From Candidatus Rokuibacteriota bacterium (GTDB taxonomy: Bacteria > Methylomirabilota > Methylomirabilia > Rokubacteriales > CSP1-6): a stretch of DNA of 64,000 nt. Each line of letters starts with the position of its first letter. Within the stretch, counting starts at the first letter, position 1. Location of the stretch: the NCBI GenBank assembly GCA_003220315.1, contig QHSA01000133.1:14843-78842 (forward strand). The letters run 5' to 3'. The position numbers and the translations under genes were made by a program. Below are positions 10,741 through 60,143 of this stretch, piece after piece. Below the pieces are notes generated by a model that did no database searches, was not told the DNA's origin, and saw nothing but the letters and a program-made list of their open reading frames with translations.

Positions 10741-11651
10741 GTGCGGAGCCGCCGCACGGCACTCGCGATGCCGCCCGGCATGAACAGCATCGAGGCGATC
10801 AGGATCGCGCCAAAGATCAATGGGCGGTAGTTCTGGAAGCCCGCGAGGGAGTCGTTCAGGACCGTGAGCACCGCCGCGCCGGCCACCGAGCCAGGGACCG
10901 ATCCGAGGCCGCCGAGGATGATCATCGCCACGAAGTCCACCGACAGGAACACGTCGAAGGCGTCGGGCGAGAGGAAGCCGACGACGAAGGCGAAGAGCCC
11001 GCCGGCGACGCCCGTGTAGAGCGCCGAGATCGCGAACGCGAGCGTCTTGTACCGCGCCACGTGGATCCCGCTCGCCTGCGCCGCGACCTCGCTCTCGCGG
11101 AGCGCGAGGAGCGCGCGCCCGGTCCGCGTCCGCGCGAGGTTTCCGGCGGCCCACACCATCACCGCGCCCACCGCGAGGACCAGATAGTAGCGCGCCGTGT
11201 CGGTCGCGAGCACCCACGGCCCGAGGCGCGCGGCTGGGACCCGGAGCCCGTCGTTGCCGCGCGTGAGCCCGTCGAGGTTCAGGATCGCCTCGACGACGAC
11301 GAACCCGAAGGCGAGCGTCGCCATCGCGAGATAGAGGCCCTCGAGCCTGAGGCACGGCACCCCGAGCAGGAGTCCGACCGCCGCGGTGACGAGCGCCGCC
11401 GCGAGGAGCGCCACGACGACCGGGACGCCGGGCGAGCGCGTGGCCACGATCGCGGCGGTGTACGCGCCCACTGCGAGGAACCCCGCGTGGCCGAACGAGA
11501 GCTGGTTCGTGTACCCGGAGAGGAGGTTGAGCCCGATCGCCACGATCGCGTTGACGACGATGAGGCTCGCCAGGAAGACGAAGTAGCGCGGCGCCGCCCA
11601 CGGCCAGAGGAGCAGTCCCGCCGCGCCGATCGCCAGCGCGAGGAGCCGCAT
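10686..11651 (-). CDS. livM: Branched-chain amino acid ABC transporter permease LivM
   Basis: Start ATG 11651 (MRLLALAIGAAGLL) overlaps the TGA of livH (ATGA); LivM-type TM profile; the last ~18 codons are encoded by R1 repeat sequence. Confidence 0.85.
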   Translation of the reverse strand: MRLLALAIGAAGLLLWPWAAPRYFVFLASLIVVNAIVAIGLNLLSGYTNQLSFGHAGFLAVGAYTAAIVATRSPGVPVVVALLAAALVTAAVGLLLGVPCLRLEGLYLAMATLAFGFVVVEAILNLDGLTRGNDGLRVPAARLGPWVLATDTARYYLVLAVGAVMVWAAGNLARTRTGRALLALRESEVAAQASGIHVARYKTLAFAISALYTGVAGGLFAFVVGFLSPDAFDVFLSVDFVAMIILGGLGSVPGSVAGAAVLTVLNDSLAGFQNYRPLIFGAILIASMLFMPGGIASAVRRLRTRWAGHPPMAPGSRRGLE

Positions 11652-48957: not shown

Positions 48958-49877
48958 ACGCGGATGAACTTCTGCAGCGAGCGGATCTCGCGCGGCGGCG
49001 TCTCGTTCCTCCCCTGCGCGGTCCAGGACACCTCGGCCACGTAGAGCGCGCCGCGCGAGTCGACGGCGCAGCCGTGCGGCGCCACGAACTCACCCGGCTT
49101 CTCGCCCGCGAAGGGGCCACCGAGCCGCCCCACCAGATCGCCCTTGAGGGTGAGGATGCTCACGCGCGCGCCGAGGTTCGGCACCTGAGCGTTCACGGCG
49201 AGGTGCGTCGGCAGCTCGCCGACGTAGAGCAGCCCGCCGTCGCGTCGCTCCGCGAAGAGCCCGCACGGGCGATGCAGGTTGCTGAGCTGCGCGAGGTACT
49301 GCCCCTTCCCGTCGAAGACCTGCACGCGGTGATTCTCGCGATCGGCGACATACACCAGGCCGTCCGCGTCGGTGGCGAGGTTGTGCGGGACGTTGAAGCA
49401 GCCGGGGTCGGTGCCCGGCGCGCCCCACGAGTGGAGGTGCCGGCCCGTGGGGTCGTACTTGTGCACGCGCGAGTTGCCGTAGCCGTCGGAGACGTAGACG
49501 TCGCCGCTCTTCGGGCAGAGCGCCACGTGGGTCGGCCGGTTGAACGGCTTGCCGCCCTGGAGCGTGGACGGGGTGTCGGGATCACCGATCGTCAGCAGCA
49601 GCTTCCCCGCGGCGGTGAACTGGCGGATCGTGTGGTGCAGATCGTCCGTCAGCCAGAGCGTGTCGTTCGGGCCGATCGTGATCCCGTGCGGCCGGCGGAA
49701 GATCCCCTCGCCCCACGAGCGGAGGAAGTTCCCGTCCCGGTCGAAGACGATGACCGGGTGCGCGCCGCGGTTGAAGACGTAGACGTTGTCTGCCGCGTCG
49801 ACGGCCACGCTCGTGGCCTCGACGTAGGACCACCCCTCGGGCAGCCTGCCCCACCCCGCCACCGGACGGTAGTTCAT
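48954..49877 (-). CDS. NHL-repeat beta-propeller protein
   Basis: Repeated ...VYV(S/A)D... blades (six-bladed NHL type). Confidence 0.75.
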   Translation of the reverse strand: MNYRPVAGWGRLPEGWSYVEATSVAVDAADNVYVFNRGAHPVIVFDRDGNFLRSWGEGIFRRPHGITIGPNDTLWLTDDLHHTIRQFTAAGKLLLTIGDPDTPSTLQGGKPFNRPTHVALCPKSGDVYVSDGYGNSRVHKYDPTGRHLHSWGAPGTDPGCFNVPHNLATDADGLVYVADRENHRVQVFDGKGQYLAQLSNLHRPCGLFAERRDGGLLYVGELPTHLAVNAQVPNLGARVSILTLKGDLVGRLGGPFAGEKPGEFVAPHGCAVDSRGALYVAEVSWTAQGRNETPPREIRSLQKFIRV

Positions 49878-49983
49878 GACCGACCCTCCCCCGCTCGGAG
49901 CCCCATACTGCCACAAGCGGACCACACGGGCCATCGCCGGACGGAGCCGGAGTCACGCCGTCCGCTCGCGTAGAATATCCGGG

Positions 49984-52900
49984 ATGCGGTGCCCCGCGTG
50001 TCGAACCGAGAACCGCCCCGGCGTGAGGTTCTGCGAGGAGTGCGGCGCGACGCTCGACGTGCTGTGTCCCGCGTGCGGCGCCGGCGTCCCGACGGGAAAG
50101 AAATTCTGCGGCGCGTGCGGCGCCCCGCTCGCCGCCGCCGTCCCCCCGGCGCCCGCCGTGGCGTCCCCGCGGTTCGAGTCGCCGCGTGCGTACACCCCCG
50201 CGCATCTCGCGGCGCGGATCCTGAAGGACCGCGCGGCGCTCTCGGGGGAGCGCAAGCAGGTCAGCGTGCTCTTCGCCGACGTCTCCGGCTTCACGTCCAT
50301 CTCCGAGCGCCTCGACCCCGAGGAAGTCCACGCGCTCATCAACCGCGCGTTCGAGCTGATGCTGGCCGAGATCCACCGCTACGAGGGCACGGTCAACCAG
50401 TTCCTGGGGGACGGACTCATGGCGCTCTTCGGCGCACCGATCGCGCACGAGGACCATGCCCAGCGCGCCGCTCACGCCGCGCTCGCCATGCAGCAGACGC
50501 TTTCGCGCTACCGCGACGAGCTCCAGGCGACGCGCGCGATCGACTTCCGCGTCCGCCTGGGCCTCAACACGGGGCTCGTCGTCGTGGGCGCCATCGGCGA
50601 TAACCTCAGGATGGACTACACGGCGGTCGGGGACACGACGAACACGGCGGCCCGGATGCAGCAACTCGCCGAGCCCGGCGCGATCGTGGTGGCCGAGGCC
50701 AGCCAGAAGCTGATCGCGCCGTACTTCGCCACGCGGGCGCTCGGCGCAGTCCCCGTGAAGGGCAAGAGCCAACCCGTGGCCGCGTACGAGCTCCTCAAGG
50801 CGCTCGAGGGGGTCACGCGTCTCGACGCCCGCGCGGCACGCGGCCTGTCGCCGTTCGTCGGGCGTGACGACGCGCTCGAGACCCTGGCGCGCGCCTGGGC
50901 GCAGGTCCGGAGCGGCCGCGGGCAGGCCGTTTTCGTCCTCGGCGACGCGGGCATCGGCAAGTCGCGGCTCCTCTTCGAGTTCCGGCGGCGAATCGGGGAC
51001 ACGGTGACGTGGATCGAGGGCGACTGTATCTCGTTCGGGCAGTCGATCCCGTTCCTCCCGATCGTCCAGATGCTCAAGCGGAACTTCGGTATCGAGGATC
51101 ACGACTCCGAAGAGCGGATCGTCGCCCGGGTCCATCACGGCGTCGCGTTCCTCGGCGAGGAGGCCGCGAGCGTCGAGGCCCTGCTGCGGTACCTCCTCGC
51201 CGTCGATCCGGGCGATCCGGCCGTCGCCGCGCTGGACCCGGTGCAGCGGCGTGCCCGCGTCGTCACCGCGATCCACCGGCTGACCGCGACGGGCAGCCGC
51301 CGGCGCCCGATCGTGCTCGTCGTGGAGGACGCGCACTGGATCGACGGCGCCTCGGAGGACTTCCTGAAGTCCCTGACGGAGAATCTGCCCGGCATGGCGG
51401 TGCTGCTGATCGTCACGTATCGCCCGGTCTACGCGCAACCGTTCGGCGATCGCACCTACTACTGGCGCATCGGGCTTCAACCGGTCGATGAGGGCGCCGC
51501 GACGCACATCGTGCGCGCGACGCTCGGCGTCGCGGAGCTCCCGCGCGAGCTGGCCGTCACCATCGCGGGCAAGGCGGAAGGCAATCCGTTCTTCCTCGAG
51601 GAGATCGGCCGCACCCTCGAGGAGACGGGCGCGGTCCGGGTCGAGAATGGCCGGCTCGTGCTGGCGCAGGCGGCGTCGACGATCACCGTGCCCGAGACCG
51701 TGCAGGACGTGATCGCCGCGCGCCTGGACCGACTCGCGGACTCGCAGAAGCGGACCGTGCAGACGGCGTCCGTCATCGGCCGCGAGTTCGCGCTGGCGCT
51801 CCTCAAACGCGTCTCCGATCTCCAAGAGCAGCTCGAGCAGAGCTTGAGCGAGCTCAAGCGAATCGAGTTGATCTACCAGAAGGGCGGCTTCGGCGAGCTC
51901 GAGTACGTCTTCAAGCACGCGCTGACCCAGGACGTCGCCTACGCCTCGCTGCTCCAGTCCGAGCGGCGTCGCTTGCACGCGCTGATCGGTGCGGCGATCG
52001 AGGAGGTCTACGCCGGTCGCCTCGAGGAGCGGACCGAGGAGCTCGTCTACCACTTCACCCGCGGCGAGGTCTGGGACAAGGTCGTCCGGCACGCGCGGGT
52101 GGCCGCCGAGCGCGCGGCGGCGCTCTGCGTGGACGACAAGGCCGTCGAGTTCTACGAGATCGCCCTCGAGGCGCTGCGGCAGGCGGCAGAGACGCCGGAG
52201 ACGGCGCGGGCCGGCATCGACCTCCGCCTGGCCATGCGAGCGCCGCTCTGGCGGGCCGGACGACTCGATCCGCTGTATGAACGGTTCCGGGAGGCGGAAG
52301 ACCTCGCCACACGGCACGGCGTGGCGGAGGTCCTGGACACGATCTACGCCTATCTCGTCCAGTATCACTGGGCCAAGGGCAACCCCGACGAGGCCTTGAC
52401 GTACGGGCGGCGCTGCCTCGAGCGGGCCGCGGCGCGAGACGATCTGGGGCTCGCGGTCACCGGGCACTACTACCTCAGCCGCACCTACCAGACGGTGGGG
52501 CGACACCGCGAAGCCGTCGGTGAAGCCGAGGCGCTGCTGTCCCTGCTCGCCGGCCGGGAGCACGAACGGTTCGGGTTGTCCGGTCTACCCTTCTCCGGCG
52601 CCTGCGCCCTGGCGGCCTTCTCCCTCGCCGAGCTCGGGGACACCACCGGAGCCCTGGCGATGATCGAGCGAGGGAGGGCGGCCGTCGACGCGGCCGGGCA
52701 CCAGTACAGCGCGGCCGTCATCGACGTCAATCACGCGTTCGTCCTCGCGCGGGCTGGCCGTCTCGAGGAGGCGGTTCGGATCGGCGAGTCGGTGGTCGCC
52801 ACCTGCCAGGAGAAGAAATTCGCCGGTCAGTTCATGCTGGGCGCCTGCGCGTTGGCGCACGCGTACGCGGCGCTCGGCCGCGGGCGGGAGGCGGCCGCGC

Positions 52901-53229
52901 TGGCGGGCGCGGCGATCGAGCGGCAAGACACGGCGCAGGCCTTCTCCGACCGCGCGTGGATGCACTCCACCAAGGCGCTCGGGCACGTCGCAGCGGGCGA
53001 ACTGGACGAGGCCGCCCGCGACGTGGCGCGCGGACTCGAGTTCGCCGAGCGTCACCGCGAGCGCGGCTGGGAGGCGTGGACGCGCTACGTCGCCGGACTC
53101 ATCGCCGAGCGGCGTGGTGATCGTGCCGGCGCCGCGCGCGACGTCGACGAGGCACAGGAGATCGCGGAAGAGCTCGGGATGCGGCCCCTCCTCGAGCGCT
53201 GTCGCGCGGCGCTCGCGAAGCTCGGCTGA
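49984..53229 (+). CDS. Multidomain adenylate/guanylate cyclase: double zinc-ribbon, class III cyclase (CHD), AAA/STAND ATPase and TPR domains
   Basis: N-terminal CPACRTENRPGVRFCEECGA / CPACGAGVPTGKKFCGACGA ribbons. CHD motifs (VLFADVSGFT, FLGDGLMALFGAP, VGDTTNTAARM, LGAVPVKGKSQPVAAYEL). Walker A GDAGIGKS and Walker B LVVEDAHW. Long C-terminal TPR/helical region. Confidence 0.85.
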   Translation: MRCPACRTENRPGVRFCEECGATLDVLCPACGAGVPTGKKFCGACGAPLAAAVPPAPAVASPRFESPRAYTPAHLAARILKDRAALSGERKQVSVLFADVSGFTSISERLDPEEVHALINRAFELMLAEIHRYEGTVNQFLGDGLMALFGAPIAHEDHAQRAAHAALAMQQTLSRYRDELQATRAIDFRVRLGLNTGLVVVGAIGDNLRMDYTAVGDTTNTAARMQQLAEPGAIVVAEASQKLIAPYFATRALGAVPVKGKSQPVAAYELLKALEGVTRLDARAARGLSPFVGRDDALETLARAWAQVRSGRGQAVFVLGDAGIGKSRLLFEFRRRIGDTVTWIEGDCISFGQSIPFLPIVQMLKRNFGIEDHDSEERIVARVHHGVAFLGEEAASVEALLRYLLAVDPGDPAVAALDPVQRRARVVTAIHRLTATGSRRRPIVLVVEDAHWIDGASEDFLKSLTENLPGMAVLLIVTYRPVYAQPFGDRTYYWRIGLQPVDEGAATHIVRATLGVAELPRELAVTIAGKAEGNPFFLEEIGRTLEETGAVRVENGRLVLAQAASTITVPETVQDVIAARLDRLADSQKRTVQTASVIGREFALALLKRVSDLQEQLEQSLSELKRIELIYQKGGFGELEYVFKHALTQDVAYASLLQSERRRLHALIGAAIEEVYAGRLEERTEELVYHFTRGEVWDKVVRHARVAAERAAALCVDDKAVEFYEIALEALRQAAETPETARAGIDLRLAMRAPLWRAGRLDPLYERFREAEDLATRHGVAEVLDTIYAYLVQYHWAKGNPDEALTYGRRCLERAAARDDLGLAVTGHYYLSRTYQTVGRHREAVGEAEALLSLLAGREHERFGLSGLPFSGACALAAFSLAELGDTTGALAMIERGRAAVDAAGHQYSAAVIDVNHAFVLARAGRLEEAVRIGESVVATCQEKKFAGQFMLGACALAHAYAALGRGREAAALAGAAIERQDTAQAFSDRAWMHSTKALGHVAAGELDEAARDVARGLEFAERHRERGWEAWTRYVAGLIAERRGDRAGAARDVDEAQEIAEELGMRPLLERCRAALAKLG

Positions 53230-53242
53230 GCTCGGACGGAGC

Positions 53243-53551
53243 CTACTTCCCGTACGCCGTCGACAGGTACCGGACGATCGCCTTCGCGTCCTCGTCGCTG
53301 ATCGAGGCGCCGAAGACCTTGATCATCTTCGTGACGACCGCTTCCCACTGCTTCGCGTCGCCCCGTGGCTGCATCACGATGTAGTCCGTCGAGTGGCACG
53401 AGCGGCACGCGCGCTGCGCCACCTCGACCCCCGGGCCGGGCGTGAGATCCCCGTACGCGTGGTCCGGCGGGAGCGTGATCGCCTTGGTCTGCGCCGCGGC
53501 CGTGAGCGGGAGCGCCGTCACGAGCGCCGCGAGGACGAGCGTGCGTCGCAT
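53243..53551 (-). CDS. Monoheme cytochrome c (SorB-like)
   Basis: Signal peptide; haem-binding CRSCH motif; immediately downstream of the molybdoenzyme gene. Confidence 0.7.
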   Translation of the reverse strand: MRRTLVLAALVTALPLTAAAQTKAITLPPDHAYGDLTPGPGVEVAQRACRSCHSTDYIVMQPRGDAKQWEAVVTKMIKVFGASISDEDAKAIVRYLSTAYGK

Positions 53552-53561
53552 GGCGCGCCTC

Positions 53562-54782
53562 CTAGCCCGCGTGAACGCCGCAGTGCTCGACGACGTTGCG
53601 CAGGTAGCCGGCGGGGTTCCAGAGGGGCTCGGACCCCTGCGACTCGCCGATCGCGTTGAGCGCCCGGACCATGAGCGTGTAGTCGCCCGCCCCTGGCGGC
53701 GTCCAGACCGCGCTCCACTCACGGAACGAGCACCGGCCGAGGTCCGGCCCGAGCTGCGCGCGCCGCCATGTGGCGCCGCCATCGTCGGAGACCTGGACCT
53801 CGCGGACGCCATAGCCTCCGTCGAACGCGATACCCTTGAGCGCCACGGGTCGCCCGGCGGCGACGCGCGCGCCGCTCGGGGGCGCGACGATGAAGGAGCG
53901 GACCGTCATGCGGTGGATCGGCACGGTGCTCTTCGGCGCCGTGCCGGGCTCGACGCAGCCGCACGGCGTGTCGGGAATGCGGTAGGCCGGTTTCATCCAG
54001 AACTTCTCGAACACGTGGTCGACGACCGCGATCTCCGAGAGATTCTTCACCCAGTAGGTCGCATACCACCCGGGCACGACCAGGCGGGCCGGGAAGCCGT
54101 TCAGCATCGGGAGCTCGCGCCCGTTCATCTGGTAAGCCACGATGACGTCGGGATCCTCCATGATGCGCCGGAGGTCGAGGCTCTTCACGAAGTGGGGGAC
54201 GCTCGGGAAGGCAGGCTTGTCCAGGCCCTCGAACGTCGCCTGCACGGCCCCCTGGCGGACGCCGGCCGCGGCGAGGAGATCCCTGAGGCGCGCGCCCACC
54301 CATTCGGCATTCCCCATGGCGCCGTCACCCCACTCCCCGCCGAGGACGCGGGGCGAGAACCGTCCCCGGCTGTTGCCGGCGCACTGGGTGACCGCGGTCA
54401 CCGCCGCCTTCGGGAACCTGGTCTTGAGGTCCTCGAACGAGAGCTCGAGGGGCCGCTCCACGAGCCCCGTCACCCGCAATCGCCAGGTCCCGAGGTCCAC
54501 GCCGGTCGGCACGGGGAAGGTGTGGTAGCGGACGAAGAACGCCTCGTTCGGCGTGATCGCCCGGTCGAAATACGTCATCGGGGTCTCGAGTTGCGGGGGT
54601 CTCGACGTCATGAGGATGAGGTCGGTCTTCTCGGGATAGCGGACGAGCGGCCGCCCGGCGAGGATCGGATCTGCCTGCTGCGAGAACGCCCGGGGCGCCC
54701 GCCAGAGCATCTCTGCCGAAACGGCGAACGCGCCGAGTCCGCCAACTGTTCTCAGGAAGTCCCTGCGAGGGCTCCGCGCCAT
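53562..54782 (-). CDS. Sulfite-oxidase-family molybdopterin oxidoreductase (SorA/YedY-like), Tat-exported
   Basis: Tat signal (RRDFLRTVGGLGAFAVS); Mo-Cys motif (VTAVTQCAGNSR); C-terminal dimerisation domain. Confidence 0.85.
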   Translation of the reverse strand: MARSPRRDFLRTVGGLGAFAVSAEMLWRAPRAFSQQADPILAGRPLVRYPEKTDLILMTSRPPQLETPMTYFDRAITPNEAFFVRYHTFPVPTGVDLGTWRLRVTGLVERPLELSFEDLKTRFPKAAVTAVTQCAGNSRGRFSPRVLGGEWGDGAMGNAEWVGARLRDLLAAAGVRQGAVQATFEGLDKPAFPSVPHFVKSLDLRRIMEDPDVIVAYQMNGRELPMLNGFPARLVVPGWYATYWVKNLSEIAVVDHVFEKFWMKPAYRIPDTPCGCVEPGTAPKSTVPIHRMTVRSFIVAPPSGARVAAGRPVALKGIAFDGGYGVREVQVSDDGGATWRRAQLGPDLGRCSFREWSAVWTPPGAGDYTLMVRALNAIGESQGSEPLWNPAGYLRNVVEHCGVHAG

Positions 54783-54880
54783 GGCTCCCCTCCTGATCCG
54801 GGTGAACGCCCCCCGACTCTATCCGGACTCGAGATCGTCTTCCACCCTCTCGAATTCCCTCGTGCGTATACCCTTTCAGC

Positions 54881-55360
54881 ATGGACGAGCGCGCGTTCAG
54901 CCGTGTGGCCGAGGCGTACGCCGGCCGGCTCTACGCCGTCGCCTACCGGCTCCTCAGGAACCGTGCGGACGCCGAGGACGCCGTGCAGCGCGCCCTCATG
55001 AAGGCGTTTGCGGCGCGCGCGTCGTACTCGCCGCGCTGGGCGGTCTCCACGTGGCTCTACCGCGTGCTCTCGAACGTCTGTATCGACGAGCTGCGCCGGC
55101 GCCGCCCCCCGCCCGACCCGGCGCCCGCCCACGGCGGCCGTGACTCGGGCGACGTCGAGCGCGTGGACCTGGCCCGCGCCCTGGACGCCGTGCCGCGAGA
55201 GGCGCGGCTCCTGTTGGCGCTCCACTACGTCAACGGTCTCTCGTACCGGGAGCTCGCCCGGGTCCGCGGAATCTCGGTCAACACGGTCAAGAGCCAGCTC
55301 GCCCGGGGCAAGACGATTCTCCGGCGGGCGCTGGGGGATCGGCGATGGATCTCGACCTGA
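54881..55360 (+). CDS. ECF (sigma-70 family) RNA polymerase sigma factor
   Basis: Region 2 (DAEDAVQRALMKAF... WLYRVLSNVCIDELRRR) and region 4 (YRELARVRGISVNTVKSQLARGKTIL). Confidence 0.85.
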   Translation: MDERAFSRVAEAYAGRLYAVAYRLLRNRADAEDAVQRALMKAFAARASYSPRWAVSTWLYRVLSNVCIDELRRRRPPPDPAPAHGGRDSGDVERVDLARALDAVPREARLLLALHYVNGLSYRELARVRGISVNTVKSQLARGKTILRRALGDRRWIST

Positions 55361-56052
55361 CGCTCAGGGAGTTCTTCACGGCCGCGGCTCCGCCACGCCA
55401 CGCGCTCGCCCGCCTGTTTCGGGGACTCGGGGGTCGCTCGCCACGGCTCGAACCGCTCGCCGATCGATTCCGCATTGAGGCGAGCGACCACGGCGTGACG
55501 CGCCTCCGACCGGGGCGGGGCCTCGGCGCGGCGTCCCCACGCGCCCGCGGCCACGCCGAGCAGGCGCGCGAGGAGCTCCGCGAATACCTCGCGGGCCGCC
55601 GGACGTTCTTTCGGGTCCCCCTGGACCTCGACGGGGTGCCCGAGTTCCAGGCCACGGTGCTGGCGGAGGCCGCGCGCATCCCGTTCGGCGAGGTCGTCGC
55701 GTACGCGACGCTCGCGCGGCGCATCGGCCACCCACGCGCCGCGCGCGCCGTCGGCAACGCCCTCGGCAGGAATCCGGTGCCCGTGATCGTCCCCTGCCAC
55801 CGGGTCGTCCGCGGGGACGGGAGCTGGGGGCACTACGCCTTCGGCCACGCGATGAAGACGTTCCTGCTCGGGCTCGAGCGCGCGACGCCGCTCCTCGTCG
55901 GCTGCGCGACGAGCCGGATCGTCTGCCGACGCGGCTGCGCGCACGAGCGGCGTGTCGCCGAGGGGAATCGCGTCGTCTTCGCCTCGCTCCGCGACGCGCG
56001 GAGCGTCGGCTACCGCCCCTGCCGCGTGTGCCGGCCGGCCCGCGTCGCGTGA
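55345..56052 (+). CDS. Methylated-DNA-protein-cysteine methyltransferase (Ogt) fused to a C-terminal Ada-type Cys4 zinc domain
   Basis: Overlaps the sigma gene by 16 nt (anti-sigma position). Ogt DNA-binding domain with PCHRVV active site. C-terminal CRRGC...GYRPCRVCRP matches the Ada N-terminal methylphosphotriester-repair zinc motif. Confidence 0.7.
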   Translation: MDLDLTLREFFTAAAPPRHALARLFRGLGGRSPRLEPLADRFRIEASDHGVTRLRPGRGLGAASPRARGHAEQAREELREYLAGRRTFFRVPLDLDGVPEFQATVLAEAARIPFGEVVAYATLARRIGHPRAARAVGNALGRNPVPVIVPCHRVVRGDGSWGHYAFGHAMKTFLLGLERATPLLVGCATSRIVCRRGCAHERRVAEGNRVVFASLRDARSVGYRPCRVCRPARVA

Positions 56053-56090
56053 TCGGCGGCTTGCCGTGATCGGCCGCGTGCTAGGAGCGT

Positions 56091-56220
56091 GTCGGAGAAA
56101 GGGCTGTCGACCGGGGTTCGAGCGCCGGCTTTGCCGGCGCACCGATTCCTCGGGGGTTCGCTCCCTCTCGGGAGCGCTCCCCCGGCCTCGGAGGGGGCCG
56201 TCGCGCCCTTAGGGCGCGCC
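56091..56220. repeat. R3-like hairpin element (extended variant)
   Basis: GTCGGAGAAAGGGCTGTCGACCGGGGTTCGAGCGCCGGCTTTGCCGGCGCACCGATTCC...CTCGGAGGGGGCCGTCGCGCCCTTAGGGCGCGCC; shares the TTCGAGCGCCGGC-loop-GCCGGCGC-ACCGAT core and GGAGGGGGCC hairpin with other R3 copies. Lies in frame with the downstream gene, giving a spurious N-terminal extension. Confidence 0.55.
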
Positions 56221-56250
56221 TGTGAAGTCGCCCCCGCCGACTCTGCTAGG

Positions 56251-57084
56251 ATGCCGACGATGACGGCCCGCGGCTCGCTCGTCTCGTTCGCCGTCGCGCT
56301 GCTCCTGGTCGGCGGCCCACGGCCGGCCGCCGCCCAGTACCCGGTCTTCGACGCCCACATCCACTATAGCCGCCCCGACTGGGACGCGTACCCGCCGGAG
56401 CGCGCGCTCGCCCTCCTCGCTCGGGCGGGTGTGCGTCGCGCGCTCGTGTCGAGCACGCCCGACGACGGCACGCTCAAGCTCTACGAGCGCGCGCCGACGG
56501 TGGTCGTGCCGTTCCTCCGGCCCTACCGCAGGCGCGAAGACATGGGCGGCTGGCACGCAGACGCGGGCGTTGCCGAATACGTGGAGGAGCGACTCAAGCG
56601 CGGTATCTACCGCGGCATCGGCGAGTTCCACCTCGGTGGCGCCGACGTGGACGCGCCCGTCGTCCGGCGGATCGCCGAGCTGGCGGCGGAGCGCGACCTG
56701 TTCCTGCACGCCCACGTGGACGCCGACACGATCGAGAAGCTCCTGGCGCGCTACCCGAAGGTCCGCTTCCTCTGGGCCCACGCGGGCATGTCGGCGGACG
56801 CCAGGACCGTCGGCCGGCTGCTCGACCGATTCCCGAAGCTCTGGGTGGAGCTGGCGCTCCGCAGCGACGTCGCGCCGGGCGGCCGGCTCGACCCCGAATG
56901 GCGCGCGCGCTTCCTGCGTCACGCCGATCGTTTCATGGTCGGGACCGACACGTGGGTGACTTCTCGCTGGGAGGCCGTCGAGTCCTCCACGCGGGACGTC
57001 CAGGAGTGGCTCGCCGAGCTCCCGGCGGAGGTCGCCGAGCAGATCGCGTGGAGGAACGGCGCGCGTCTCTTCCCGGCGCCTTAG
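56251..57084 (+). CDS. Amidohydrolase-2 family (TIM-barrel metal-dependent hydrolase), secreted
   Basis: Signal peptide; FDAHIHY metal motif; HAHVD and WAHAG motifs. Confidence 0.7.
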   Translation: MPTMTARGSLVSFAVALLLVGGPRPAAAQYPVFDAHIHYSRPDWDAYPPERALALLARAGVRRALVSSTPDDGTLKLYERAPTVVVPFLRPYRRREDMGGWHADAGVAEYVEERLKRGIYRGIGEFHLGGADVDAPVVRRIAELAAERDLFLHAHVDADTIEKLLARYPKVRFLWAHAGMSADARTVGRLLDRFPKLWVELALRSDVAPGGRLDPEWRARFLRHADRFMVGTDTWVTSRWEAVESSTRDVQEWLAELPAEVAEQIAWRNGARLFPAP

Positions 57085-57121: not shown

Positions 57122-57541
57122 TCAGCGGCCCTGAGCCTCGACGAGGTGGCGGTCCGAGTCGTAACGGAGCCGGCCGAGCGCCGCGTCGCGCTCGAGCCAC
57201 GCGACTTCGTCCACCTCGTGGTCGTGCTCGCCGACCTTCTCGAGCGGTCGCATGAGGAACCAGCGCACCGTCTTCCGGATCCGCTGCCCGTCGCGCTGAA
57301 ACCAGTACGTCGCGGTGTCCAGCTCGCGCACGACCTCGCAGCGGTACCCGGTCTCCTCGCGCACCTCGCGGAGGGCCGCGTCCGCGCTCGACTCGCCGGG
57401 GCCGAGCGTCCCCTTCGGCAGCGTCCACACGGGCTGGTTACGCAGATCACGCGCGCGGATCAGCAGCACCCGGCCACGCTCGTCGACGACCAGCCCGCCC
57501 GCCGAGAACTGCAGCACCGGCCGCGTCTGCTTCTCCGCCAT
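57122..57541 (-). CDS. NUDIX hydrolase
   Basis: Nudix box GPGESSADAALREVREETG. Confidence 0.85.
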   Translation of the reverse strand: MAEKQTRPVLQFSAGGLVVDERGRVLLIRARDLRNQPVWTLPKGTLGPGESSADAALREVREETGYRCEVVRELDTATYWFQRDGQRIRKTVRWFLMRPLEKVGEHDHEVDEVAWLERDAALGRLRYDSDRHLVEAQGR

Positions 57542-57555
57542 ACGCCCATGATACG

Positions 57556-59238
57556 ATGCGACGCGAGACCCAGCTCGAAGGGAGAACGGACGCGCTCGAC
57601 CTTCTCGCGCACTTCCCGGCGGGCGTGACGCCGCGTCCCGAGCAGGCGCGTCTGCTCGCCGCCGTCGCCGATGCGATCGCGGAGGCCCTGGACGACCCGG
57701 CGGCCGCGCGCGTGGTCCTCGTCGAGGGGCCGCCGGGCGTGGGCAAGAGCCACATCGCGATGACGCTCGCGCGGTGGAGCGGTGACGCCTACCTGCTGAC
57801 CTCGCAGAAGCTGCTCCAGGATCAGTACGAGCGCGAGTTCGGCGCCGAGCTCCAGATCGTGAAGGGCCGCGACAACTACGCGTGCGACCGCTATCCCGGC
57901 GCGCACGTCCCGACCTCGCGCGGCGCCTGCCGCCGGCCGCGCGGCCCGCTCTGCCAGTGCCCGTACGTCCGCGCCAAGACGGCCGCCCTCGGGGCGCCGA
58001 TCTTCTGCGCCAACACCACCTACTTCGCCACGCTCCGCCACTGGCACGCCGAGCGACTCCGGCGGCGCCGTCTCTTGATCGTCGACGAGGCGCACAACCT
58101 CGAGGCGCAGCTCGCCGGCGTCTACACCGCCGGCTTCCCGCCGGCCGAGATGCGCGCGTGGTTCGGCGGGCCGCTGCCGCACCTGGCCTCCGCCGACGAC
58201 TACCGCGCGCTGCTCGTCGAGCACCTCGACCGGCTCGAGGCGCGACGCGCGGCGATCGGGCGCGAGCTGGAGGCGCTCCGTCCGCCCGAGCTCGCCGCCG
58301 ACCTCTTCCTGCGCATGCCCCCGTCCCGGGCCGAGCAGGAGCTGATCGCGCAGCGCGATAATCTAGAATCGGCGTTCGCGCGCGTCCGCTTCTTCCTCGA
58401 CGATGCGGGAGAGTGGATCATGCGCTACCCACCCGATCCCGACGCCACGCTCGAGCTCGTGCCCCTGAGCGTCGCCGTGATGGCGCGCGAGCTGTTCGCC
58501 GAGTCCGCGGAGCTGGTCGTGCTCTCCTCGGCGCACCTCGGCCCGAAGAGCGTCCTGGCGGAGTGCTTCGGCCTCGACGCGGGCGGGATGCGCGCCTTCG
58601 CCAGCCCCTCCCCCTTCCCCGTCGAGCAGCGCCCCATCGTGTACCGTCCGGTGGGCGCGCTCTCGCGCTCAAGCCTCGCCGCGCTCGAGCCCGCCCTCTT
58701 CGCGGCGATCGCCACGATCCTCGACGTCCATCGCGCCGAGAAGGGGCTCATCCACGCGCCCTCGTACGCCGCCGGCGCCCGCCTGGTCCGCGACCTCGCG
58801 GCGCGCGCGCCGGCCCACGCGCGCCGTCTGATCTGGGTGGAGTCGACCGAGGCGAAGGCGCGTGCCCTCGACGCGCACCGCGCCTCGTCGGTCCCGACCG
58901 TCCTCGTCTCGCCGTCCCTCCGTGACGGCGTGGACCTGCCGGACGATTTCCTGCGCTTCCAGATCGTGACGAAGATGCCGTTCCCCGACCTCGGTGATCC
59001 GTGGACCGCGGCGCGGCGGGAGCGCGATCCGCGCTGGTACGCGCTCGAGACCGCCAAGGCGCTCGTGCAGGCGTACGGGCGCTCGTGCCGCCACGCCGGC
59101 GACCACGGGGTCAGCTATGTCCTCGACGCGCAGTTCGAGCGCTTCCTGGCCCGCTATCGTGTGCTCCTGCCCGAGTGGTTCCTGGACGCCGCGGAGCCCG
59201 CGCTCCGCGCGCGGGGCTCGTCGGACGGGACCGAGTGA
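57556..59238 (+). CDS. XPD/Rad3/DinG-family Fe-S ATP-dependent DNA helicase
   Basis: Walker A GPPGVGKS; four-Cys FeS insert (C-D-R ... C-R-R-P-R-G-P-L-C-Q-C-P); DEAH box LIVDEAHNLE; HD2 motifs near the C-terminus. Confidence 0.8.
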   Translation: MRRETQLEGRTDALDLLAHFPAGVTPRPEQARLLAAVADAIAEALDDPAAARVVLVEGPPGVGKSHIAMTLARWSGDAYLLTSQKLLQDQYEREFGAELQIVKGRDNYACDRYPGAHVPTSRGACRRPRGPLCQCPYVRAKTAALGAPIFCANTTYFATLRHWHAERLRRRRLLIVDEAHNLEAQLAGVYTAGFPPAEMRAWFGGPLPHLASADDYRALLVEHLDRLEARRAAIGRELEALRPPELAADLFLRMPPSRAEQELIAQRDNLESAFARVRFFLDDAGEWIMRYPPDPDATLELVPLSVAVMARELFAESAELVVLSSAHLGPKSVLAECFGLDAGGMRAFASPSPFPVEQRPIVYRPVGALSRSSLAALEPALFAAIATILDVHRAEKGLIHAPSYAAGARLVRDLAARAPAHARRLIWVESTEAKARALDAHRASSVPTVLVSPSLRDGVDLPDDFLRFQIVTKMPFPDLGDPWTAARRERDPRWYALETAKALVQAYGRSCRHAGDHGVSYVLDAQFERFLARYRVLLPEWFLDAAEPALRARGSSDGTE

Positions 59239-59252
59239 TAGCATAGGCGGTC

Positions 59253-60143
59253 GTGAACGCGCGCGACGTCGACGCGGTCCTCCAGGCGGTCCGCTTCGAG
59301 CTCTATCGGGAGAACGTCTCCGGCGCCCTCGAGCTGGCCGAGCGCGCTCACGCCGCCCATCCCGACCCCCGGTACGCCGAACAGGCGGCGCGGATCCGGT
59401 CGTGGCTCACGCACCTCGAGAGCCGCGAAGCCTATATCGCGGCCCAGGAGGCGCAGTACAGGCGGCTCCGCTGGCGGGTCGGGCTGAAGCTCCTCGAGCG
59501 GCGGATCCGGATCCTCCTCGGCCGGAAGACGCGCAAGATGATCGGGCGACGCGGGCGTGATCCCGAATTCCAGGAGCTCGAGCGCGAGGTCGCCAGCGTG
59601 CGGCCGCGGCGCGCGCTCGACGCCGGAAGCGGCGAGGGGGGCGTGGCGATGGCGCTGGGCGCCCGCCACCCCGACGTGCGCGTCGAGGGCGTCGAGGTGT
59701 CGGCGACGAACGTCAGGATCGCGCGGCAGCTCAACCGGTTCAAGAACGTCGACTTCCGCCCGGGCCTCGCCGAAGAGGTCCACCTCCTCTTTCCGGCCGC
59801 GTCGTTCGACCTCGTGTACTCGTTCGCCGTCCTCGAGCACGTGCGCGACGTGAACGCGACGGTGCGCGCGATCGAGACGGTGCTGCGTCCAGGCGGGCGC
59901 TTTGCGTTCGTCGTTCCCATGCACGAGCTCCGCGCGCGGGGCCCGATCCCCGACTATGCGCCGGTCCACGGCTACGCCGACCACTGTCGCGTCTTCACGG
60001 AGGCGGAGCTGCGCGCGCGCTTCGGCGGTCGGAAGGGTTTTCGACTGGTGAAGATCCCGGGAGCCTGGAAGCACGGCGAGCTCCCGGACTGCTTCGAGCC
60101 GATCGAGTTCGGCTCGTTCTTCGTGTCGTACGCGACGGATTAG
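59253..60143 (+). CDS. Class I SAM-dependent methyltransferase with ~100-aa N-terminal helical extension
   Basis: Motif I LDAGSGEGG; small-molecule MTase type (no DNA-MTase catalytic motif); GTG start. Confidence 0.8.
   Translation: MNARDVDAVLQAVRFELYRENVSGALELAERAHAAHPDPRYAEQAARIRSWLTHLESREAYIAAQEAQYRRLRWRVGLKLLERRIRILLGRKTRKMIGRRGRDPEFQELEREVASVRPRRALDAGSGEGGVAMALGARHPDVRVEGVEVSATNVRIARQLNRFKNVDFRPGLAEEVHLLFPAASFDLVYSFAVLEHVRDVNATVRAIETVLRPGGRFAFVVPMHELRARGPIPDYAPVHGYADHCRVFTEAELRARFGGRKGFRLVKIPGAWKHGELPDCFEPIEFGSFFVSYATD

Follow-up and report, generated by a model that had tools for sequence, protein, structure and literature searches.

The ECF sigma gene and the Ogt-AdaZn gene that follow one another in the window (the whole 64-kb stretch of DNA analysed here) are a real, conserved module. 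The second protein, an Ogt alkyltransferase that carries an Ada-type zinc module, probably occupies the anti-sigma position and probably acts there, a conclusion drawn from the sequences of this pair and of its relatives. Whether the operon is an autoregulated sigma/anti-sigma-type switch that senses DNA alkylation, with binding of the sigma factor, its inhibition and its alkylation-triggered release as the postulated steps, is in our judgement an evenly balanced question, and the evidence bearing on it is set out below.

The gene pair and its domains

The features of the pair are collected in Table 1. A preliminary description of this DNA had called the upstream gene an ECF sigma factor, and the profile searches agree: the protein matches Pfam Sigma70_r2 (E 6e-17, 61.7 bits) and Sigma70_r4_2 (E 7e-14, 51.7 bits), and it scores 87.5 bits with NCBIfam sigma70-ECF (TIGR02937), where the cutoff is 42.9. 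With 151-159 aa, depending on the start, it consists of the sigma-2 and sigma-4 domains only, which places it among the ECF (group IV) sigma factors. The gene had been placed at 54881; while the bounds of that open reading frame hold, the true start is probably not ATG 54881 but GTG 54905, since the -10 element of the promoter described below ends 10 nt 5' of that ATG (11 nt for the CGTATA hexamer). The NCBI gene call on an identical contig also starts at GTG 54905, giving 151 aa.

Table 1 Features of the sigma/Ogt-AdaZn operon (positions within the window)
Feature	Position	Strand	Remarks
ECF-type promoter, class A (predicted)	54840..54871	+	motif conserved across related loci
ECF (group IV) sigma gene	54881..55360	+	159 aa ORF; Pfam, NCBIfam
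Sigma-stop/Ogt-AdaZn-start overlap	55345..55360	+	16 nt, ATGGATCTCGACCTGA; translational coupling
Ogt-AdaZn gene	55345..56052	+	235 aa: two-helix motif, Ogt N-domain, Ogt C-domain, Ada-type Zn module
N-terminal two-helix motif, ~30 residues (MDLDLTLREFFTAAAPPRHALARLFRGLGG)	55345..55434	+	putative minimal sigma-binding anti-sigma remnant
Ogt N-terminal (ribonuclease-like) domain	55450..55629	+	residues ~36-95; weak Pfam Methyltransf_1N match
Ogt catalytic/DNA-binding domain	55642..55881	+	residues 100-179; PF01035
Ada-type Zn(Cys)4 module	55894..56043	+	residues 184-233; PF02805

The overlap of the sigma gene with the downstream reading frame is as it had been described, and a Shine-Dalgarno-like GGGGGA lies 6 nt 5' of the Ogt-AdaZn ATG. 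A longer Ogt reading frame with a start further upstream was rejected, since an in-frame stop bounds the frame. Scans of positions 54600-56400 for sigma-70 promoters and intrinsic terminators found none.

The downstream protein had been read as a complete Ogt alkyltransferase followed by an Ada-type Cys4 zinc motif, with the AraC HTH missing, and all three points were confirmed. DNA_binding_1/Ogt (PF01035) covers residues 100-179 (E 3e-28, 98 bits against a cutoff of 27) and TIGR00589 reaches 97 bits against a cutoff of 46.4; the active site PCHRV (residues 150-154, at 55792-55806; PCHRVV at residues 150-155) contains the acceptor, Cys151. The protein was modelled with AF2 from a 78-sequence alignment (pLDDT 86.4), which replaced a shallow alignment of close homologues whose model was unusable (pLDDT 54.5). 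The model matches M. tuberculosis OGT 4bhb (E 1e-11, TM 0.69), with a fold match over 160 columns and an Ogt N-domain at pLDDT >90, and the catalytic domain has PDB matches by sequence as well as by fold. Alignments of 20 and of 78 divergent sequences show no variation at Y120, R134, N143, P150, C151, H152, R153 or E178, and we take Y120, R134, N143 and E178 to be the counterparts of human AGT Y114, R128, N137 and E172. Since the DNA-binding and catalytic residues are all invariant, including the R134 arginine finger, Y120, N143 and the H152-E178 network, they argue for genuine DNA repair chemistry.

The zinc module matches Ada_Zn_binding (PF02805) over residues 184-231 (E 6e-7, 29.7 bits against a cutoff of 23), and its ligands C194 and C198 (CRRGC) and C226 and C229 (PCRVC), spaced C-x3-C ... 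C-x2-C, are invariant across the family. It aligns with Ada residues 30-76 in 1adn, and in Foldseek it superposes on 1u8b_A, 1zgw and 1wpk (rmsd 1.6-2.1 A, 49-51 columns, E 0.017-0.06), the methylated N-Ada/DNA complex 1u8b_A giving 1.6 A over 51 columns. The PF02805 match spans profile positions 18-64 of 65 only, positions 1-17 (the first helix) being missing in the window's clade; some relatives, P0156 among them, span positions 7-64. The protein gives no HTH_AraC match, and the chain ends 6 residues past the last Cys.

Conservation of the pairing and kinship with zinc anti-sigma factors

An ECF sigma gene stands immediately upstream, on the same strand, at 62 of the 64 Ogt-AdaZn loci with enough upstream sequence, and at 5 of 61 plain Ogt genes, a figure that includes 2 truncated or odd Rokubacteria copies (about 3 of 59 otherwise). 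Carriers of the pair are found in Rokubacteria, where all 15 species representatives keep it, and in Actinobacteria, Chloroflexi, Alphaproteobacteria, Acidobacteria and Dormibacteraeota, the cultured ones including Nonomuraea gerenzanensis and Rubrobacter radiotolerans, which in RSPS-4 has the pair on plasmid 2 (WP_051590067.1 / WP_084264190.1). In four further contexts from four lineages the two genes overlap by 4-23 nt or are separated by a 3-nt gap, and the gene order with its stop/start overlap is held across at least six phyla. The survey of such neighbourhoods that the preliminary description had proposed finds the pairing kept in many phyla of soil bacteria and not confined to one genome. 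With every Rokubacteria representative, other phyla and nearly all loci showing the pair, the idea of a fortuitous overlap peculiar to this genome was discarded and retains virtually no probability. The partner sigmas are only 25-46% identical and go with two different promoter classes, class A, described below, and class B (TGCAAC-N17-GGGTTC) in other clades. They may thus come from several ECF groups, and their modes of action may differ from system to system.

A clue to the role of the downstream protein comes from its N-terminus. Only about 30 residues precede the Ogt N-domain in the window protein, whereas a ZAS domain has about 80-90 residues and four helices; HxxxCxxC and some 50-70 residues of the canonical four-helix anti-sigma domain are missing. 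In many relatives the same Ogt-AdaZn body is preceded by a complete ZAS domain (C...HxxxCxxC) as an N-terminal fusion. In these C3, H29, C33 and C36 are invariant and zf-HC2 scores 27 bits against a cutoff of 22.2, and the precomputed architecture PF13490+PF01035+PF02805 is present among the relatives. The ZAS-bearing proteins likewise lie directly behind an ECF sigma gene, on the same strand, at 3 of 3 ZAS-Ogt loci. A rough NJ tree, which carries no bootstrap support, puts them at scattered places just outside the clade of the window protein, a pattern consistent with an ancestral anti-sigma domain that was cut short more than once.

When the window's N-terminus was aligned by hhalign with those of the ZAS-bearing relatives, the match was moderate (86% probability, E 4.7e-6, 29 columns) and fell in the segment after CxxC, making the window's N-terminus a putative remnant of the distal part of a zinc anti-sigma domain. 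The short N-termini, taken alone, matched none of the curated anti-sigma families. AF2 predicts helices at residues 3-13 and 18-29 (pLDDT ~50) that are not packed against the rest of the model, as expected of a partner-binding segment, and D4, L7, F11 and R23 are invariant within the clade. An HMM of the motif matched 15 of 23 Ogt genes with a sigma gene and 0 of 56 without one; the motif is missing from the sigma-less exception L093 and is retained in L145, where no sigma gene adjoins.

The preliminary description had suggested an alkylation-sensing sigma/anti-sigma-like module. The anti-sigma position in that suggestion is supported by the conserved, coupled pair, by the ZAS fusions and by the putative N-terminal remnant that goes with an adjacent sigma gene. 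A complete anti-sigma domain is what the window protein lacks, so that the ~30 residues alone would have to hold the sigma factor, and an inhibitory function is less certain here than in the ZAS-bearing relatives.

The ZAS fusions also bear on a different kind of sensing. ZAS anti-sigma factors respond to disulphide stress and electrophiles, and the Ogt and Ada folds could have been reused as reactive-cysteine sensors that respond directly, in the manner of RsrA, to oxidants, electrophiles or free methylating agents. Two strongly nucleophilic Cys centres are present in the protein, to which the relatives add a third, the zinc site of the ZAS domain, with an RsrA-like ligand set. This reading leaves little place for the full conservation of the Ogt DNA-binding and catalytic residues (R134, Y120, N143, H152-E178). 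In one phylum, the Dormibacteraeota, the operon continues with a third gene, for a predicted DNA-demethylating oxygenase (PF09859), which also counts in favour of the proposed alkylation switch, and in the window's clade the ZAS site has been lost and the pairing nonetheless kept. We therefore regard direct thiol sensing as quite improbable.

The operon promoter and a proposed circuit

The predicted class A promoter has a -35 element, TTCCACCC, at 54840-54847 and, after a 16-nt spacer, a -10 element, GCGTATAC, at 54864-54871. In 20 loci of the Rokubacteria clade the sigma gene is preceded by the bipartite motif TTCCACCC-N16/17-CGTATA, and the class A motif was counted at 24 loci against a maximum of 14 in shuffle controls. 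The site occurs once in the 64-kb window, where 0 are expected by chance and where exact and matrix scans found no further class A sites. A weak second match, at about L001:10785 on the minus strand (identical contigs), was treated as chance or a terminator, since it lies between two convergent genes, one of which it would read in antisense, and since it includes a hairpin and its -10 is weaker. From the conserved motif we infer that the operon is autoregulated by its own ECF sigma, with TTCCACCC-N16-CGTATA as the presumed promoter.

In the circuit that we propose the ECF sigma would transcribe its own operon from this promoter, and the co-translated, soluble Ogt-AdaZn protein would keep it inactive through the N-terminal two-helix segment. 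During repair Ogt-AdaZn would irreversibly take an alkyl group on Cys151 (from O6-alkylguanine), on Cys194 (from methylphosphotriesters) or on both, and the alkylated protein would then let go of the sigma factor or be degraded. The freed sigma would drive more transcription from the operon and from whatever unlinked genes belong to the regulon, replenishing the repair protein until unalkylated anti-sigma titrates the sigma factor again. Alkylation of the AGT acceptor Cys and of the Ada zinc-site Cys are known conformational or electrostatic switches. Somewhat more tentatively than for the switch as a whole, and at a little under even prospects, we suggest that Ogt-AdaZn is a 'suicide anti-sigma factor', whose stoichiometric consumption by alkyl transfer from damaged DNA would free a dedicated ECF sigma. 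If true, this would give bacteria a third architecture for the adaptive response to alkylation, one that does without activators of the Ada/AraC type and works through a minimal two-helix sigma-binding module of ZAS descent; it would be widespread in uncultured soil phyla (Rokubacteria, Dormibacteraeota, Chloroflexi and Acidobacteria) and occur in cultured Actinobacteria too.

Co-transcription by itself is equally expected if Ogt-AdaZn is merely the product of the regulon. The sigma factor would then be governed otherwise, by transcription from another regulator or by an unlinked anti-sigma factor, and the N-terminal motif would serve another use, such as dimerisation or DNA contacts. The operon's own ECF-type promoter, with no other site in the window, makes the repair protein the only visible local target, and the missing complete anti-sigma domain and the motif of L145 without a neighbouring sigma gene point the same way, as does the classing of ECF122, in the passage on that group in PMC8999054, as having no cognate anti-sigma factor. 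What a pure output role leaves unexplained is the repeated fusion of full ZAS domains to the same protein, the confinement of the N-terminal motif to sigma-linked Ogt genes, with none of the 56 others matching, and the persistence in at least six phyla of a stop/start-overlap order that is typical of stoichiometric partners. We hold this explanation to be unlikely, while giving it more weight than any other competitor of the anti-sigma reading.

A positive partnership of the kind known from E. coli would turn the sign of the regulation around. There, Ada activates transcription once it is methylated, by contacting both region 4 of sigma-70 and the C-terminal domain of alpha. By this precedent the Cys194-methylated module would gain DNA affinity and recruit or activate RNA polymerase with the dedicated ECF sigma, which would stand in for Ada's AraC-type domain and for its contacts with sigma-70. 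The superposition of the Cys4 module on the methylated N-Ada/DNA complex and its four invariant ligands suit such a role. The protein, however, has no sequence-specific HTH and, in the window's clade, lacks the first 17 Pfam Ada_Zn positions; the domain fused to it in relatives is an anti-sigma domain, inhibitory and not an activator; and no conserved Ada-box-like element was seen 5' of the -35 in the aligned promoters, in a comparison that was not rigorous. Positive partnership is accordingly a quite improbable account of the pair, and inhibition with alkylation-triggered release is the one that we prefer.

Relation to known systems

The adaptive response to alkylating agents is the textbook case of a repair protein that doubles as its own sensor, and to our knowledge it is known only in its Ada/AraC activator form. 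If the proposed circuit is true, sigma/anti-sigma signalling too has come to use irreversible self-alkylation, with an output that would depend on the titration of a repair enzyme consumed in the process; anti-sigma factors would gain a new type of cytoplasmic sensor, and a minimal sigma-binding peptide would be defined. The sigma/promoter pair (TTCCACCC-N16-CGTATA) would be orthogonal and perhaps alkylation-inducible, and could be of use in synthetic biology. The abundance of the module in soil metagenomes suggests an important stress from environmental methylating agents in soil.

Like E. coli Ada, Ogt-AdaZn joins an Ogt-type Cys acceptor and a Zn(Cys)4 methylphosphotriester acceptor in one polypeptide; its zinc ligands correspond to Ada C38, C42, C69 and C72 and its zinc-module fold matches 1u8b, and the irreversible self-alkylation that serves Ada as signal, together with the autoregulation of its gene, is proposed here as well. 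The domain order is the opposite, with Ogt first and the zinc module last, and the AraC-type HTH and the first N-Ada helix are missing. Whereas Ada activates directly at the Ada box, a dedicated ECF sigma would carry the output here, probably as its inhibition is lifted.

In RsrA-SigR and RshA-SigH a soluble anti-sigma factor encoded directly 3' of an autoregulated ECF sigma is inactivated by covalent Cys modification, and we propose the same for Ogt-AdaZn, whose ZAS-bearing relatives share the C...HxxxCxxC ligand set of RsrA/RshA. The window protein differs in having lost the zinc-binding helices, and the signals would differ too, being a disulphide within the anti-sigma domain of RsrA/RshA and, as proposed here, an irreversible alkyl transfer onto the fused catalytic domains. 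For the small size of the remaining segment there are parallels in the CnrY-type (class II) and NepR modules, of about two helices and 30-60 residues, which bind sigma domains. They resemble the Ogt-AdaZn N-terminus in size, with no sequence similarity detected; unlike Ogt-AdaZn, CnrY is membrane-anchored and NepR takes part in partner-switching with PhyR.

The AdaA/AdaB operon of B. subtilis and the AdaA-AlkA/Ogt operon of M. tuberculosis spread adaptive-response functions over differently fused polypeptides within one operon, as is the case here. Unlike the window pair, they retain an activator domain of the AraC type and include no sigma factor.

The module had been put forward as one not described before, which is right only in part, since the association itself is to some extent on record. 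For ECF122 a 2022 review (PMC8999054) names a 6-O-methylguanine DNA methyltransferase as a conserved neighbour, says that it 'could be involved' in regulation and gives the mechanism as unknown; following the classification of Casas-Pastor et al. 2021 as relayed there, it files the group among sigma factors without a cognate anti-sigma factor. Beyond that one sentence of PMC8999054, a literature search on ECF or anti-sigma factors with O6-methylguanine methyltransferases or the adaptive response returned nothing. If the proposed circuit is true, an ECF group that this source lists under 'unknown mechanism' (ECF122 and relatives) would have its mechanism. The window pair resembles ECF122 in combining an ECF sigma with a conserved neighbour of this kind, a likeness of gene neighbourhood. 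The exemplar of ECF122 in that source is actinobacterial (Cellulomonas), unlike the Rokubacteria pair of the window, and its entry there makes no mention of an Ada-zinc fusion, an anti-sigma remnant, a ZAS fusion or a promoter, whereas the window pair has the AdaZn fusion, a putative remnant and a predicted promoter.

The sigma/Ogt-AdaZn gene pair and its putative promoter

The preliminary description had placed an ECF sigma gene ahead of a gene fusing an Ogt alkyltransferase to an Ada-type zinc module, and every detail of this pair was borne out. The two ORFs overlap by 16 nt (ATGGATCTCGACCTGA), and the first, with Pfam matches to Sigma70_r2 (E 6e-17) and Sigma70_r4_2 (E 7e-14) and an NCBIfam sigma70-ECF score of 87.5 bits (cutoff 42.9), is by these domain matches an ECF sigma factor. 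In the second protein, referred to with its relatives as Ogt-AdaZn, the Ogt domain PF01035 covers residues 100-179 (98 bits, Pfam cutoff 27), with PCHRVV at 150-155, and is followed by an Ada_Zn_binding match at residues 184-231 (29.7 bits, Pfam cutoff 23), whose cysteines C194, C198, C226 and C229 are spaced C-x3-C...C-x2-C. No AraC-type HTH was found in this 235-aa protein. A PDB sequence search matched it to M. tuberculosis OGT (E 1.5e-20), with a further, weak match to N-Ada (1adn, E 0.006).

Its AlphaFold2 model (78-sequence alignment; mean pLDDT 86.4, pTM 0.76) scored above 90 in pLDDT over the Ogt domains and the C-terminal module, and Foldseek matched it to OGT structures (4bhb, E 1e-11) and to the methylated N-Ada/DNA complex 1u8b (rmsd 1.6 Å, 51 columns, E 0.017), as well as to 1zgw and 1wpk. 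Divergent alignments show no variation at Y120, R134, N143, P150, C151, H152, R153, E178 or any of the four zinc cysteines, so both alkyl-acceptor centres look functional and not degenerate.

Upstream of the sigma genes we found two classes of bipartite motif, each above shuffle controls. Along the 64 kb of the window the class A pattern turns up a single time, where chance would give none; this one motif ahead of the putative operon fits the autoregulation usual for ECF sigma factors. Because its -10 element sits too near ATG 54881 (ending 10 nt before it, with the CGTATA hexamer 11 nt before), the real sigma start is more likely GTG 54905, which is preceded by GGACGAG, would give a 151-aa protein and is also the start in the NCBI annotation of an identical contig. 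The window scan found no additional local targets with the class A motif. A weak second match (TCCACCC...CGTAC; minus strand, 10758-10785 of comparison locus L001, about window 60100-60130) lies between two convergent genes and contains a CGACG/CGTCG hairpin, making a terminator or a chance match more likely than a promoter.

Features of the sigma/Ogt-AdaZn region and promoter motif classes
Feature	Window position	Strand	Details
Signalling protein, large ORF	49876-53229	+	1117 aa; 1068 aa as called on identical contigs
Sulfite-oxidase-like molybdoenzyme, then small cytochrome c-like protein	53243-54782	-	
Class A promoter motif	54840-54871		TTCCACCC-N16/17-CGTATA(A/C)C; also at 19 other Rokubacteria-clade loci
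Class B promoter motif			TGCAAC-N16/17-G(G/T)GTTC; 26 loci, other clades
ECF sigma ORF	54881-55360	same as Ogt-AdaZn ORF	159 aa
Ogt-AdaZn ORF	55345-56052	same as sigma ORF	235 aa
NUDIX hydrolase and DinG/Rad3-like helicase	57122-59238	- (NUDIX)	just downstream of pair; helicase (Helicase_C_2) 57556-59238

Conservation of the pairing

Conservation was surveyed by two scans, one taking one genome per GTDB species (80 loci) and the other covering metagenomes with divergent family members as seeds (80 more). Sigma genes were found by HMM, the count was limited to loci with 1 kb or more of sequence upstream, and a locus was taken as paired when an ECF sigma gene ended 435-534 nt before the PCHR codon. 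An upstream ECF sigma gene accompanied 62 of the 64 genes for Ogt with a C-terminal Ada-zinc module and 3/3 of those for Ogt with an N-terminal zinc anti-sigma (ZAS) domain, against 5 of 61 for plain Ogt; these five include two truncated or aberrant Rokubacteria copies and one with a 994-nt distance.

In the GTDB-species scan the sigma gene lay directly upstream in 15/15 Rokubacteria representatives, and also in a Deltaproteobacteria MAG, an Acidimicrobiia MAG and three Chloroflexi. Gene calls gave a 4-23 nt overlap or a 3-nt gap for the pair in an Alphaproteobacteria MAG, in Dormibacteraeota and at two ZAS-type loci, and the source names in a protein search added short-type proteins, which lack a full ZAS, from Acidobacteria (Thermoanaerobaculia) and Chloroflexi. 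The protein identical to that of the window recurs on many soil-metagenome contigs and in Candidatus Rokubacteria MAG GCA_001919765.1, with the same neighbours every time. Among cultured actinobacteria, the pair is present in Nonomuraea gerenzanensis and, with an 11-nt overlap, on plasmid 2 of Rubrobacter radiotolerans RSPS-4, annotated there only as 'RNA polymerase sigma factor' and 'methylated-DNA--protein-cysteine S-methyltransferase'. By this distribution across the surveyed phyla and cultured actinobacteria the pairing is a conserved module and no accident of one genome; a fortuitous overlap peculiar to this genome is refuted by the paired Ogt-AdaZn loci from several phyla.

Searches of the literature turned up no work on an ECF sigma factor in the alkylation response. 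The association of an ECF sigma with an O6-methylguanine methyltransferase is as such already catalogued, since a review (PMC8999054) lists ECF122 among the groups without a cognate anti-sigma and with conserved 6-O-methylguanine DNA methyltransferase neighbours, which by its account could take part in regulation. The earlier statement that the module had not been described is thus only partly right; the texts searched make no mention of the Ada-zinc and ZAS fusions, the putative anti-sigma remnant at the N-terminus, the promoter motifs or the breadth across phyla. The partner sigmas share only 25-46% identity with that of the window, and two promoter classes are used. The module is real, conserved and largely unstudied, and its presence in cultured Rubrobacter or Nonomuraea makes it directly testable.

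The N-terminal region and a possible anti-sigma role

A whole-library search found many Ogt-AdaZn relatives of 285-320 aa with an N-terminal H-x3-C-x2-C motif. In ten aligned ZAS-type proteins C3, H29, C33 and C36, the ZAS ligand set, are invariant; ZAS-type N-termini matched Pfam zf-HC2 at 27.5 and 27.2 bits (gathering score 22.2), and the combination PF13490+PF01035+PF02805 is precomputed for many such relatives. Two ZAS-type Ogt-AdaZn genes with known context have an overlapping ECF sigma gene ahead of them, and Chloroflexi ZAS-Ogt fusions likewise sit behind an ECF sigma. Read as domain fusions, these are a Rosetta-stone link from the Ogt(-AdaZn) body to anti-sigma function.

The H-x3-C-x2-C zinc motif is absent from the window protein. 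Its N-terminus is about 30 residues longer than that of stand-alone Ogt, and these residues form a conserved motif (hydrophobic-x2-L-x2-L ... A-P-x2-L-x3-V) common to very divergent short-type members, which aligns just after the CxxC of ZAS-type N-termini (hhalign probability 86%, E 4.7e-6, 29 columns). An HMM of the motif matched 0/56 sigma-less Ogt genes and 15/23 Ogt genes with an upstream sigma, and an Ogt-AdaZn gene without a sigma (locus L093) also lacks it; by profile alignment, HMM distribution and this locus, the motif is tied to the sigma factor. AlphaFold2 predicted helices at 3-13 and 18-29 with pLDDT of only about 50, as expected of a segment that would pack against a partner. 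ZAS-bearing members are scattered in a rough neighbour-joining tree of the Ogt-AdaZn core without support values, with two of them (P0124 and P0129) just outside the clade of the window protein, a pattern which suggests that the full anti-sigma domain was ancestral and truncated more than once. At one locus of the Rokubacteria-like clade (L145:3130-3929), an Ogt-AdaZn gene with the motif is preceded by a transaldolase-like gene in place of a sigma gene, and the partner sigma may lie at another site in the genome.

The best supported reading, to which we give about an even chance, is an alkylation-sensing sigma/anti-sigma module of four steps, in which we infer binding, inhibition and release. 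The sigma factor would drive transcription of its own operon, and Ogt-AdaZn would hold it in check by binding through the N-terminal helices. Alkyl groups from damaged DNA would pass irreversibly to Cys151, Cys194 or both, and the alkylated protein would be altered or destabilised, freeing the sigma until fresh Ogt-AdaZn synthesis put the brake back. Alkylation of Cys145 destabilises human AGT, and alkylation at Cys38 is an electrostatic switch in Ada. That the repair protein is a product of the regulon and no more we think unlikely. Less probable still is direct sensing of thiol-reactive chemicals by Ogt-AdaZn, and an Ada-like positive partner is just as improbable. Lacking an AraC domain, the module is not an Ada regulator, and the window protein, with neither HxxxCxxC nor the four-helix domain, is not a canonical class I anti-sigma; the sigma/anti-sigma module would work as ZAS-type pairs do, with a sensor borrowed from Ada.

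Neighbouring genes and variant loci

In the window, the large signalling protein combines N-terminal zinc-ribbon motifs, an adenylate/guanylate cyclase domain, an AAA_16 ATPase domain and TPR-like repeats. The genes for the molybdoenzyme (Oxidored_molyb, twin-arginine RRDFL signal) and the cytochrome c-like protein (CRSCH haem motif) are divergent from the sigma operon, and the putative ECF promoter falls within the intergenic region of only 98 nt. The NUDIX/helicase neighbourhood has a DNA-repair flavour and does not accompany the module in other phyla.

Two Dormibacteraeota loci (L170:4795-5514 and L171:4795-5514) carry a third operon gene, with a 4-nt overlap, for a 2OG-Fe(II) oxygenase of a family (PF09859, Oxygenase-NA) predicted in Pfam to act on damaged DNA bases, a hint that the regulon can extend to more alkylation-repair functions. 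Just upstream of the sigma gene on an Alphaproteobacteria contig (L169:589-873), a 94-aa ORF with an Ada_Zn_binding match has a translation like the N-Ada N-terminus, with most zinc cysteines lost, and may be a decayed remnant. One Rokubacteria representative (L021:4001 onward) keeps the sigma and the Ogt part and has a 314-residue tail in place of the Ada-zinc module, perhaps through a frameshift, a fusion or an assembly artefact. At five loci (L099, L125, L129, L134 and L141) a second, divergent ECF sigma paralogue (E 1e-32 to 1e-35 with the same sigma HMM) lies immediately upstream of the operon, on the minus strand and some 600-1100 nt ahead of the partner sigma.
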